Source: Candidatus Omnitrophota bacterium (GTDB lineage Bacteria; Omnitrophota; Gorgyraeia; JAGLLT01). From it: a stretch of DNA of 35,034 nucleotides. The DNA lies in contig JAGLLT010000013.1 of NCBI GenBank assembly GCA_023140385.1, forward strand, positions 1 to 35,034, written 5' to 3'. This document shows positions 1-2,460 of this stretch, one piece after another. The notes under the pieces were generated by a model that was not told the origin of the DNA, made no database searches, and saw only the letters and a program-made list of their open reading frames with translations. A program made the translations under genes and the position numbers. How positions within the stretch are numbered: position 1 is the first letter of the stretch; each line of letters starts with the position of its first letter.

Positions 1-10
1 GTTCAAAACA

Positions 11-84
11 TGGCTGCCCTGCCTGGATTTGAACCAAGACTAACTGAACCAGAATCAGTCGTGCTGCCGTTACACTACAGGGCA
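11..84 (-). tRNA. tRNA-Gln (anticodon CUG), CCA encoded
   Basis: Reverse complement folds as a cloverleaf: acceptor TGCCCTG/CAGGGCA (U1-A72), D-arm GTGT..GCAC, anticodon arm ACTGA-TTCTGGT-TCAGT, T-arm CTTGG-TTCAAAT-CCAGG, discriminator G, then CCA. Lies downstream of glnS. Confidence 0.97.
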
Positions 85-345
85 AGATTTTATATTATCA
101 AGTGAATCTCTAACAATCAATCTTAAAGATTTTTTGCCTTTTGTGGTTTTAAAATATCTTTCTCGCCTAAGAGCATCTCGCTTAGATAGAAAGCATTCAT
201 AAAATATCAAATTTAAATCTGAGTATCGCACTGTTGTATGCACTAAACCTGCTTTATGCTCTTTTATTCGCCTATTCAGATTTTCTGTATAACCAATATA
301 AAATTTATCGTCCAGTTTACTCAACAGCACATAAACGTAATACAT
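70..345 (-). CDS. Stand-alone GIY-YIG nuclease family protein (SLX1-like/UPF0213 type), 91 aa
   Basis: Motifs YYVYVL..FYIGYTENLNRRIKEH and ALRRERYFK. The last four codons and the stop (TGC CCT GTA GTG TAA) are the first 15 nt of the tRNA. Confidence 0.9.
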   Translation of the reverse strand: MYYVYVLLSKLDDKFYIGYTENLNRRIKEHKAGLVHTTVRYSDLNLIFYECFLSKRDALRRERYFKTTKGKKSLRLIVRDSLDNIKSCPVV

Positions 346-406
346 AACTTTAGGTAACCAAAAGTGTGAATCAAATTTGTTTTAATTTACAGCGGTCATG
401 AACCAG

Positions 407-468
407 CCCTGAACCAGTACAAGTACGATTCAGGGTTGCCGTGAATCAATCTTTGATTTGGTTCACGG
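407..468. repeat. Inverted pair of related REP-like hairpins flanked by a CAG direct repeat
   Basis: 407-435 (+) CCCTGAACCA-GTAC-AA-GTAC-GATTCAGGG and 439-468 (-) CCGTGAACCA-AATC-AAA-GATT-GATTCACGG; CAG at 404-406 and 469-471. Confidence 0.8.
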
Positions 469-498
469 CAGAATCAGTCGTGCTACCAGTTATTTTAA

Positions 499-528
499 CC
501 CCATACCGTGCTCTGCTCTGGTATAGGG
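499..528 (-). repeat. REP-like palindrome inserted in the D-arm of the orphan tRNA half
   Basis: Minus strand CCCTATACC-AGAGCAGAGCAC-GGTATGGGG: 9-bp stem with one G-T pair. Confidence 0.75.
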
Positions 529-575
529 CACTACAGGGCAAACTTTTAAAACTAAAAGCGCAAAATACCGCGCAA

Positions 576-656
576 GCTGTGCCTGTGATTTTTGAAGAGA
601 AATAGCCCCGCAGGGGCGTAGCTTGCTGATTTCGATGAAAAAATTATAGGCACAGC
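576..656 (+). repeat. 81-nt element with an 18-bp terminal inverted repeat and internal hairpins
   Basis: GCTGTGCCTGTGATTTTT (576-593) pairs with AAAAATTATAGGCACAGC (639-656) with two G-T pairs. Inside are GAAAT..ATTTC, GCCCC-GCA-GGGGC and AGC-TT-GCT. Confidence 0.7.
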
Positions 657-749
657 GCTTAATTTTTCTTAACAACTACTAAAATAATACTATAAAATTA
701 AAAAATTATCTATACTTAAATATATAATATTTGCAGGTTATGTTTTTGG

Positions 750-801
750 TTTCAATTTTGAATTTTACGTTTTGCGTTTTGCGCTTTTCGCTTTACGCTT
801 T
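750..801. repeat. Degenerate 7-nt tandem repeat overlapping the glnS stop
   Basis: TTTTACG TTTTGCG TTTTGCG CTTTTCG CTTTACG (763-797), preceded by TTTCAAT TTTGAAT. Confidence 0.7.
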
Positions 802-2460
802 CTTATTAATCTTCGCCCAGGTATCTCTTAAAGAGACAATGCGGTTAAATATTAACTTATCTTTAGCCGCGTCCTTATCTAAGCAGAAATACCCCAGCCT
901 TTCAAACTGATATTTGCTATCAGGTTTTGCGTTTTTTAGGCTGGGTTCTAAATAGCATTTGTTTAATATGATAAGTGACTCTTTATTGAAATTATCTTTA
1001 TAATCTTCTGCTTCATTGGGGTCTCTGGTTAAAAAGAGATGGTCATATATTCTTACTTCCGCCTCTATGGCGGTTTTTTCTGCTACCCAGTGCAGGGTGC
1101 CTTTTACTCTTCTACCGTCAGGCGAGTCTCCGCCTTTAGTTGCCGGATCATAAGTACAGCGTAATTCTTTGATTTCACCTGTTTTTTCATCTTTTATAAC
1201 CTCTTTACAGGTTATAAAGTAAGCATAACGCAGGCGGACTTCCCTATCAGGAGCTAAGCGGAAGAACTTCTTATGAGGAACCTCTTGGAAGTCATCTTTT
1301 TCAATATATAATACCTTTGAAAAGGGAACCTTTCTTGTGCCGCTTGCTTCATCTTCCGGATTATTAATACAATCTAATTCTTCTTCTCTTTCCTCCGGGT
1401 AGTTTTCGATTACCACCTTAAGAGGGTTTATGACAGCCATTACTCTGTTAGATGTCTTATTTAATTCCTCCCTTAAGGAGTTCTCTAATAAATTCATCTC
1501 AATAATAGAGTTTATTTTAGTAACTCCGATTGTCTTACAGAAGTTTCTAATAGACTCCGGCGTATAGCCTCTTCTTCTCAATCCGGATATCGTCGGCATT
1601 CTGGGGTCATCCCAGCCGTTTACATATTTCTTTTCTACAAGTTCTAATAGTTTTCTTTTACTTAAAATAGTATGGCTTAAATTAAGCCTGGCAAACTCTA
1701 TCTGCTGGGGATGATGGACTTCCAGTTTGTCTAATATCCAATCATACAATGGCCTGTTATTCTCAAACTCTAAAGTGCAGATAGAATGAGTAATTCCTTC
1801 AATTGAATCTGAAAGGCAATGGGTAAAATCATACATAGGATAAATGCACCATTTATCAGCTGTCCTGTAATGACTTAGTTTGCGTATTCTATAAAGAGCG
1901 GGGTCGCGCATGGTTAAATTTGGAGATGCCATGTCTATCTTAGCTCTTAGAGTCCTGCTTCCTTCTTCAAACTCGCCCGCTTTCATTTTCTTAAATAAAT
2001 CGAGGCTTTCATCAAACGGACGTTCACGATAGGGGCTGTCTTTTCCGGGTTCGGTTAGGGTGCCGCGGTATTTTCTTACCTCTTCGGGGCTTAAGTCGCA
2101 GACATAGGCTTTACCCTTTTTAATTAATTCAAGAGCATAGCTATATAACTGCTCAAAATAATCAGAAGCATAATATAGGCCATCCCATTTAAAACCCAGC
2201 CAGCTTACGTCTTCTTTAATGGAATTAACATATTCCATCTCTTCTGTCTCAGGATTAGTATCATCCAGCCTTAAGTTGCAGGGGCCGTTGTATTTTTTAG
2301 CCAATCCGAAGTTAAGGCAGATGGATTTGGCGTGTCCTATGTGAAGATAGCCGTTAGGTTCCGGAGGAAAACGGGTATGAACCCTGGAGTCATTTTTATT
2401 ATTTTCCAGATCTTTATTAATTATCTCTTCAATAAAATTAGATGCTTTTTCTTTATCCAT
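793..2460 (-). CDS. glnS: Glutamine--tRNA ligase
   Basis: [33 protein letters not shown] and QFERLGYF motifs; 555 aa, no C-terminal YqeY extension. Confidence 0.97.

Follow-up and report, generated by a model that had tools for sequence, protein, structure and literature searches.

A GIY-YIG nuclease gene with conserved DNA hairpins at tRNA-Gln(CUG) in a Candidatus Omnitrophota genome: a probable copy of a recurrent small selfish cassette

The DNA analyzed here, positions 1 to 35,034 of contig JAGLLT010000013.1 (35,034 nucleotides [nt]; hereafter, the window), belongs to a Candidatus Omnitrophota assembly (GCA_023140385.1; 1.50 Mb in 57 contigs, 41% G+C, 92.7% complete), and at its very start it holds a small GIY-YIG nuclease gene lodged between a truncated and an intact copy of a tRNA-Gln gene. 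On the minus strand, on which all features of the locus are placed, the order is gltX, glnS, a 252-nt intergenic stretch, a relic of tRNA-Gln(CUG), a 53-nt spacer, the GIY-YIG gene and the intact tRNA-Gln(CUG). In our judgment, window 70-540 is probably one copy of a recurrent, tiny selfish DNA cassette living at tRNA genes, which would consist of a single-domain GIY-YIG gene preceded by one to three conserved DNA hairpins. The comparisons established the anatomy of the cassette and its repeated occurrence in different phyla, showed the hairpins to be conserved and covarying and the same-strand arrangement to be fixed, and documented gain or loss between close relatives.

An initial annotation of this DNA had described a tRNA-Gln 5' half that stops at nt 40, and both the exact repeats and our reading of 540-399 agree with that description. 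The relic is made up of tRNA nt 1-12 (529-540, identical to the intact copy), nt 13-35 (469-492), and an end piece (399-406) formed by a second copy of the anticodon, CTG (406-404), and by GTTCA (403-399, nt 36-40), a pattern also found in 12 other loci; divergence from the intact tRNA begins after nt 40. The D-loop difference between the two 5' halves, already pointed out in that annotation, was found again (TAACTGGTA in the relic vs TAACGGCA in the intact copy). Two exact repeats tie the relic to the intact gene, one of 13 nt (541-529, one flank base plus nt 1-12, equal to 85-73) and the other of 16 nt (484-469, nt 20-35, equal to 65-50). Each pattern occurs twice in the window, where 0.00-0.01 occurrences were expected, and none of 100 shuffles had two matches.

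Between these pieces lie two inserts. Insert 1, in the D-loop (493-528, 36 nt), is a hairpin (528-499) with a TTAAAA tail, with a DNA fold of -6.6 kcal/mol (z -2.7; 3 of 200 shuffles as good), and insert 2, in the anticodon loop (407-468), comprises hairpin 1 (468-439), a CAA linker and hairpin 2 (435-407), with a fold of -17.9 kcal/mol (z -5.2; 0 of 200 shuffles as good). Both had been removed from the tRNA half in the initial annotation; they are not noise but the conserved, covarying hairpins of the element. In the relic of locus L016, a similar insert (one hairpin and a TTAAAA-type tail) stands one base further on, past nt 13, and the relic of locus L008 has a 54-nt insert after nt 12.

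The nuclease gene (70-345) encodes a protein of 91 amino acids (aa) that matches Pfam PF01541 with 63.1 bits (cut-off 22.6; E 3e-17) over residues 1-71, which places it in the GIY-YIG superfamily. Among 61 aligned sequences (alignment A3), Y16, G18, H30 and E62 are invariant and Y5 and R26 nearly so (at least 90%); all are present here, and they make up the GIY-YIG catalytic set (Tyr, Tyr, Arg, His/Tyr, Glu), with putative roles as assigned in the superfamily and as indicated by mutants of the Neisseria nuclease SsnA. The protein is a catalytic domain only, of the size of the single-domain Ssn type, no other family fits it better, and the added DNA-binding domain of homing enzymes is lacking. 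Its nearest solved relatives are the UPF0213 proteins BH0048 and EF2693 (PDB 1zg2 and 1ywl), with E 2.8e-6 for the single protein and 8e-11 and 1.1e-10 for the family profile. The same profile collects 21,843 clusters at E 0.001 and 4,420 at E 1e-10, and six small GIY-YIG genes occur in the genome under study. No relatives were found in a phage collection (tblastn, E 1e-5) or, with two peptide patterns only, in viral contigs, both being searches of limited reach.

The family-conserved part of the gene stops near window 100, and the last nine codons plus the stop cross the tRNA flank into tRNA nt 1-15, so that the TAA stop (70-72) falls inside the D-loop of the intact tRNA. The latter (11-84) was called by ARAGORN, as the one tRNA in the window, and by Rfam (RF00005, 59.1 bits, E 5e-12), and is the sole CUG isoacceptor gene among the 39 tRNA genes found in the assembly; the cell would in this manner retain its only tRNA-Gln(CUG). 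Thus the spacer of about 50 nt, the 91-aa GIY-YIG open reading frame (ORF) and the complete tRNA-Gln(CUG) of the initial annotation were all confirmed, the spacer measuring 53 nt (346-398, no clear ribosome-binding site on reading).

Homologues of the protein were collected as 388 tblastn-confirmed relatives in genome contigs, of which the best 79 loci were kept; the closest are in Candidatus Omnitrophota bins. By ARAGORN, a same-strand tRNA adjoins the ORF in 64 of the 79, or in 68 when a tmRNA, intron-split tRNAs and one remoter tRNA are counted, and every counted tRNA is on the ORF strand. Two layouts were recognized. In the upstream layout (31/79), that of the window, a same-strand tRNA starts -24 to +48 nt from the ORF stop, and in the downstream layout (32/79) it ends 65-229 nt before the ORF start; one locus has both and 15 have no tRNA by ARAGORN. 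Four of these 15 are nevertheless associated, with a tRNA 347 nt upstream, a tmRNA, and two tRNA-Asn genes split by group I introns. Besides the present locus, 7 of the 32 others with the upstream layout have an ORF that terminates inside the tRNA.

Copies of tRNA sequence ahead of the ORF also recur, as the initial annotation had proposed to look for among homologues. In this relic search, which left out the 11 of 79 loci without a detected tRNA, 25 of 33 upstream-layout rows, window included, were found to have colinear exact blocks of at least 12 nt that begin at nt 1-13 and come from the 5' or central region of the same tRNA. Fourteen rows hold tRNA nt 1 to 36-42 near-complete, 13 of them at 100% identity, and in 13 rows an overlap of 2-3 nt exists between the tRNA blocks that flank the hairpin module. 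For the nine tRNA-Gln rows, this repeat is the anticodon triplet itself (CTG or TTG, in agreement with the local tRNA), and it must therefore derive from the target, like a short target-site duplication. Past this repeat the tRNA continues for about five bases, and the ATG follows 1-20 nt on in 12 of 13 rows, vs 63 nt in the window row by block chaining. The hairpins of the upstream layout plug the anticodon loop of a truncated copy (nt 1-40), with the intact tRNA beginning within a few bases of the ORF end. In five loci (L016, L018, L020, L007 and L030), a 3' relic with the same hairpin module lies downstream of the intact tRNA.

The conserved, covarying hairpin is CCNTGAACC...GGTTCANGG; its stem form, CC-N-T-R-N-ACC...GGT-N-Y-A-N-GG, is present in 62 of the 79 loci, nearly always within 200-300 nt before the ORF, and sits either in the anticodon loop of the relic (upstream layout) or at the CCA end of the tRNA (downstream layout). 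In about 30 of 33 downstream-layout loci the hairpin starts at the tRNA 3' end or at most 2 bases from it, and in CCA-encoding genes the CCA serves as the first three stem bases (CCA, then TGAACC...GGTTCATGG). When 33 downstream stretches picked by position, not by pairing, were aligned, the 9-bp stem was 92.6% paired and 9 of 9 pairs were changed on both sides (39 cells), a result matched by 0 of 500 shuffles, and slid-partner controls reached 39% pairing at most. The scarcity of G-T pairs is compatible with a palindrome kept at the DNA level. Across the 1.5-Mb genome the family hairpin occurs in two places, both at this locus, a third loose-pattern match being unrelated, and this count rules out the hairpin as a dispersed repeat of its own genome.

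Other observations concern the range of sites. At locus L068 (917-1349), a family hairpin begins at the CCA end of a tmRNA (RF00023, 77.7 bits), and therefore tmRNA genes serve as sites too. A group I intron interrupts the anticodon loop of tRNA-Asn(GUU) in two Planctomycetota loci, L040:1030-1440 (RF00028, 81.2 bits) and L024:860-1440 (RF00028, 79.6 bits). In the former, family hairpins and a GIY-YIG gene come directly after the 3' exon of the tRNA-Asn; in the latter, a frame with a terminal HNH-like motif enters the 5' end of the intron, and a separate tRNA 3' relic precedes the hairpins.

In an independent, wider sample of 40 regions of same-class relatives, taken by protein score alone, a same-strand tRNA adjoins 24 of 44 matches, with a chance level of <1% by our own arithmetic (about 40 tRNA genes per 1.5 Mb). 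Furthermore, on a tree of 80 proteins and 86 columns, with 8 of 77 inner branches well supported, the layouts require 5 changes (shuffled minimum 15) and tRNA identity 23 (shuffled minimum 34); the two layouts follow two protein clades, and host phyla are interleaved.

The genome under study holds other examples. A GIY-YIG ORF (contig C56, 28276-28515) lies at tRNA-Ser(GGA) with copies of nt 1-36 on both sides, the break falling in the anticodon and the stop within the tRNA copy, and two further GIY-YIG genes follow tRNA-Arg(ACG) and tRNA-Ser(CGA). At the tRNA-Ser(GGA) locus (G000:C56:28133-28712), two successive units precede the intact tRNA, each composed of upstream flank (about 26 nt), tRNA nt 1-36 and a filler of 52 nt, and the GIY-YIG gene is set into the second unit; the filler, in which the family hairpin is missing, is possibly what is left of a 3' half after decay. 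Elsewhere in the genome (G000:C9:1483-2147), an exact 36-nt copy of the 3' half of tRNA-His is found about 550 nt downstream of that gene, with a response-regulator-like gene and no nuclease gene between them.

Comparison with relatives of the host revealed filled and empty states of the same sites. In a genome of the same family (G003, glnS 92% identical), glnS is followed after 53 nt by one uninterrupted tRNA-Gln(CUG) with no nuclease gene, an empty-site relative of the kind that the initial annotation had proposed to look for; the contigs of G001 and G005 end within glnS and are uninformative at this point. A minor contig of metagenome run X4 joins the first 29 nt of the tRNA to the glnS end through 38 nt that resemble the G003 spacer, although at 102 nt, with 30 nt on the shorter side and a depth of 2.9 vs about 6-7 for window-like contigs, it is weak alone. 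Relative to this contig the difference is window 90-789 (700 nt vs 38 nt), and the boundaries of 45-398 first given to the cassette found no confirmation.

At the tRNA-Arg(ACG)/tadA locus (G000:C56:27173-27662; L099, L100 and L101), where the gene for the deaminase that edits tRNA-Arg(ACG) adjoins the gene of its substrate, three states, cleaner than those at glnS, were found among relatives. G001, which belongs to the same genus, is empty, with a 114-nt spacer of unrelated sequence; hairpins and ORF are both present in G000 (the present genome) and in G006; and G003 carries the hairpins but lacks the ORF, from inside the second hairpin to the ATG of tadA. Foreign DNA begins right past the CCA in every hairpin-bearing genome. 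At tRNA-Ser(GGA)/tadA, the spacers of the present genome and G001 are unrelated, with no clean boundary. Filled and empty alleles are thus represented by G003, by the X4 contig and by the three states at tRNA-Arg/tadA. Moreover, 35 of 41 relatives have at least one copy, the number ranging from 0 to 10 and several copies having stop codons, and four of five same-family genomes have none.

A rival account would be simple decay of a tandem tRNA-Gln duplicate beside an unrelated small gene. The letters GGTTCATGACC after relic nt 40 are faintly T-arm-like, and at tRNA-Ser(GGA), where upstream flank forms part of the relic units, these may represent entire copies that have decayed. Nonetheless, the order of truncated copy, hairpin, ORF and tRNA recurs with the same break point at no fewer than 14 loci, which span several phyla and kinds of tRNA, hairpin conservation extends across phyla, and G003 has one tRNA-Gln, not two, all of which makes such decay a very improbable explanation.

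The same alleles bear on which tRNA copy is native. The initial annotation had the cassette supply its own 5' half, from which the host tRNA was rebuilt; our comparison points the other way, with an intact tRNA that looks native and a relic that looks foreign. The intact tRNA is like the X4 empty-type contig at 33 of 34 positions, across the D-loop, and the D-loop of the relic, TAACTGGT, also occurs in a different, natural tRNA-Gln of the same habitat, on one contig of run X3 (161 nt, depth 2.3). Because of these D-loop matches, and of promoter-like hexamers just upstream of the intact tRNA in the 3' end of the ORF (TTGTTA, 18 nt, TAAAAT; 87-116, a 9/12 consensus match only), a native intact tRNA with an older or cassette-borne relic appears favored, on the letters of two short contigs. 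At the 14 other loci with near-identical copies, 13 of them exact, the comparison does not discriminate between the two.

Classical intron-less homing would also account for filled and empty alleles among relatives: a double-strand cut at the anticodon of an empty tRNA-Gln would be repaired by copying of the cassette from a filled allele, with a replacement 5' half to rebuild the tRNA. A 2-3-nt repeat flanks the hairpin module at the anticodon, and GIY-YIG homing enzymes like SegB, itself encoded within a cluster of tRNA genes, produce mostly 2-nt 3' ends (PMC2330249). On the other hand, the intact and identical tRNA gene of a filled allele would be a target too, the intact tRNA matches the empty allele and the relic looks foreign, and the conserved hairpins are given no role. 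The 5' halves, in addition, fit the local tRNA in at least five identities (Gln, Leu, Glu, Tyr and Ile), and therefore no single 5' half can have traveled. As a homing unit, the cassette of the initial annotation has its GIY-YIG domain and its filled and empty alleles in its favor, but a bare 91 aa has no DNA-binding domain of the kind that known homing enzymes possess. We consider homing of this classical type unlikely, though deserving of weight.

The mechanism that we propose for the selfish cassette is modeled on SsnA (94 aa), which binds to its hairpin repeat in single-stranded form alone and cleaves a few bases to the 5' side (PMC11893778). The nuclease would recognize the folded, single-stranded form of its own hairpins, whether at replication forks or in incoming DNA, and like the similar-sized SsnA would cut or nick beside them, which here means within tRNA-derived sequence; host recombination or template switching would then repair the break, copying or rearranging the cassette. 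By analogy, we give this SsnA-like hairpin cut with repair a little less than an even chance, vs the lower standing of a classical double-strand homing cut in empty alleles. The 40-nt duplication could have arisen by template switching during repair or from a prior tandem duplication. Since the strand is fixed and the ORF abuts the tRNA, tRNA promoters would drive the nuclease gene along with the tRNA; at loci whose ORF ends within the tRNA, RNase P processing would yield a message lacking a stop codon, which could keep the nuclease scarce. Loss of the cassette would be made harder by its position in a single-copy, essential tRNA locus and by hairpins that split the repeat; deletion of the relic-tRNA interval by recombination would be hindered because the hairpins split the 35-nt repeat into 12 + 23 nt.

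A domesticated host function would dispense with mobility, the nuclease and its hairpin sites modulating recombination or DNA uptake at tRNA loci. The presence of at least one copy in 35 of 41 relatives and the conservation of the hairpins suit this idea, and a precedent exists in the SsnA/NTS pair, which modulates transformation in Neisseria (PMC11893778). However, copies vary from 0 to 10, some with stops, and are absent from four of five same-family genomes; the locus is filled or empty in close relatives, the partner tRNA varies by locus, and truncated tRNA relics are hard to account for, so that we regard a host role as improbable.

Several points weigh against a selfish cassette with these properties. 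The 79 loci were collected as the nearest relatives of a single protein and lack independence, and every step of the mechanism is inferred. A cut at its own hairpins would break filled, not empty alleles, and spread is not explained thereby. Hairpin cores are alike within a locus in 14 of 34 cases, vs a shuffled mean of 10.1 and maximum of 20, which is no clear excess, and the typical hairpin is rare in the wider protein-score sample. The SRM motif of the Ssn paper has no match at the locus and one in 80 loci (245 kb), vs 0-2 in 20 shuffles, and therefore the hairpins here are not SRMs as defined. The boundaries at this locus are unclean, the whole glnS-tRNA spacer differing from the empty allele. 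Finally, the relic is preceded by terminator-like hairpins, with no obvious promoter.

Upstream of the cassette, glnS (glutaminyl-tRNA synthetase; 793-2460) provided the anchor for locating empty sites. The intergenic stretch between glnS and the relic (541-792) holds two terminator-like hairpins (617-605 and 573-558), a promoter-like site (672-643) and a 28-nt inverted repeat (576-603/629-656; 79% complementary, arms 25 nt apart). Nothing corresponds to these roughly 250 nt in relatives with an empty site, whose spacer measures 38-53 nt, and the stretch may represent additional inserted DNA. In the interval from glnS to the tRNA, no ORF of at least 40 aa was found except the nuclease gene and two short frames over the relic; together with the association in homologues, this bears out the small, integrase-less unit tied to a tRNA gene that was first proposed. 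An Rfam scan of window 1-1000 at E up to 10 returned tRNA only, three other rows being at chance level (E 7-8), with no RF00028 match to a group I ribozyme core in the same range; moreover, the downstream "exon" is a complete tRNA, which does not fit a group I intron.

Could the locus be the scar of an integrase island or prophage (att duplication), or else an artefact of assembly? Genes for tRNA are common integration sites in which partial copies are left (PMC9897764), and the own genome has a classical 3'-half duplicate at tRNA-His. Against a scar, there is no recombinase gene in the interval, where the nuclease gene and the short relic frames are the only ORFs of at least 40 aa, the copied part is 5' (tRNA nt 1-40), the interval is 455 nt rather than kilobases, and no group I intron or other RNA family was found by Rfam in 1-1000. 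As to an artefact, the contigs of four metagenome runs agree with the window. Taken together, scar and artefact are the most improbable of the explanations weighed here.

The window DNA was matched in cold-seep metagenome runs, among which contigs of X1 and X3 cover window 1-1200 and 10-1200 with zero differences, and X2 and X4, of the same study, cover the 1-1200 region piecewise. Misassembly, a concern of the initial annotation, is disfavored because contigs of X1-X4 agree on the join, an agreement that is not independent, since X1, X2 and X3 may be the source of the assembly. The contig ends 10 nt beyond the tRNA 3' end. Past that end three continuations were seen in the runs (the window's own, a terminator-like hairpin type and a G003-flank type), and this variety is probably why the contig ends at window 1. 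Summed contig depth in X2 and X4 rises five- to ten-fold at window 761-800 and 881-920, with TTTTGCG-type repeats at the glnS end; a short repeat there is common to other DNA in the samples. A loose end of X2 at window 484 was examined as a variant or circle junction and rejected, its 14 letters being those of window 66-79; most likely it is a second placement of the intact-tRNA contig.

More tentatively, and with slightly less confidence than in the hairpin cut, these loci may represent a distinct class of parasite of about 0.35-0.45 kb, in which a bare GIY-YIG domain with its cognate hairpins enters single-stranded loops and CCA ends of tRNA and tmRNA genes in many bacterial phyla, rides tRNA promoters and persists in essential single-copy loci, one tRNA being kept or regenerated; hairpin arms (GGTTCA/TGAACC commonest) that mimic the universal T-arm box would give it a general affinity for tRNA genes. 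If true, the cassettes would be among the smallest autonomous mobile units in bacteria, specialized on the most conserved genes of the cell, and hairpin-directed single-domain GIY-YIG nucleases would gain a selfish context and a target class, tRNA genes. They would account for odd partial or hairpin-interrupted tRNA relics in Omnitrophota, candidate phyla radiation (CPR) bacteria and Planctomycetota that confuse annotation, and the 4,420 clusters at E 1e-10 would offer many natural nuclease/hairpin pairs. Cassette gain and loss at fixed loci could be a strain marker. The mechanistic question would be how a 40-nt duplication and a 3-nt repeat arise from a hydrolase without joining activity.

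Among known systems, integrase islands encode a tyrosine recombinase, and it is usually the 3' portion of the tRNA that they duplicate; the enzymes of RAYT and IS200/IS605 elements are HUH/Y1 transposases with covalent intermediates. The islands of one study, 9-23 kb long and regarded there as integrated mobile elements or viral DNA, share with the present loci the tRNA target, favored at the anticodon loop or 3' end, the partial copy and the one working gene kept (PMC9897764). In contrast, here the element is about 0.35-0.45 kb, with a nuclease only, and in the upstream layout the 5' part is duplicated. REP/BIME-RAYT and IS200/IS605 systems are alike in that a small protein is tied to hairpins read as single-stranded DNA (PMC11893778); a GIY-YIG hydrolase cannot join strands, and therefore spread of the cassette would need host repair. 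The UPF0213 proteins BH0048 and EF2693 are equal in size and nearest among solved sequences, but bear the label of hypothetical proteins from their depositors, and a literature search gave no function for UPF0213 and no link to tRNA.

Seg proteins are about twice as long as the present nuclease and have DNA-binding domains, and we know of no hairpin module or tRNA half-copy described for seg genes. As in phage T4 SegB, however, a GIY-YIG gene lies among tRNA genes, with preferential inheritance in that phage and no intron or integrase (PMC2330249). The Ssn system offers the closest match to the protein and its hairpins: both have a single-domain GIY-YIG nuclease of about 90-94 aa with short hairpin inverted repeats flanking the gene, and the catalytic Tyr, Tyr and Glu of the present family match the positions of SsnA Y6, Y17 and E64, mutation of which abolishes cleavage (PMC11893778). 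The ssn gene is typically flanked by hairpin repeats (NTS/SRM), and the repeat-gene-repeat order looks like an insertion sequence (Chenal et al., 2025, PMC11893778). The main text of that article makes no mention of tRNA, SRM repeats are dispersed in hundreds of copies whereas two hairpins at one locus are found here, and the present hairpins lie inside or at the end of tRNA sequence, with partial tRNA duplication. Because the SRM motif stays at shuffle level and no DNA-binding domain, recombinase or group I ribozyme is present, the cassette was filed neither with Ssn nor with homing genes. No description of a GIY-YIG/hairpin cassette at tRNA genes was found in the full-text literature, supplements, which possibly list such loci, lying outside that search. 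In brief, by analogy, the element would act most like an Ssn nuclease/hairpin pair and is placed like SegB, fitting neither fully, and its nesting in tRNA genes is a new feature of hairpin-associated single-domain GIY-YIG elements or of free-standing homing genes.

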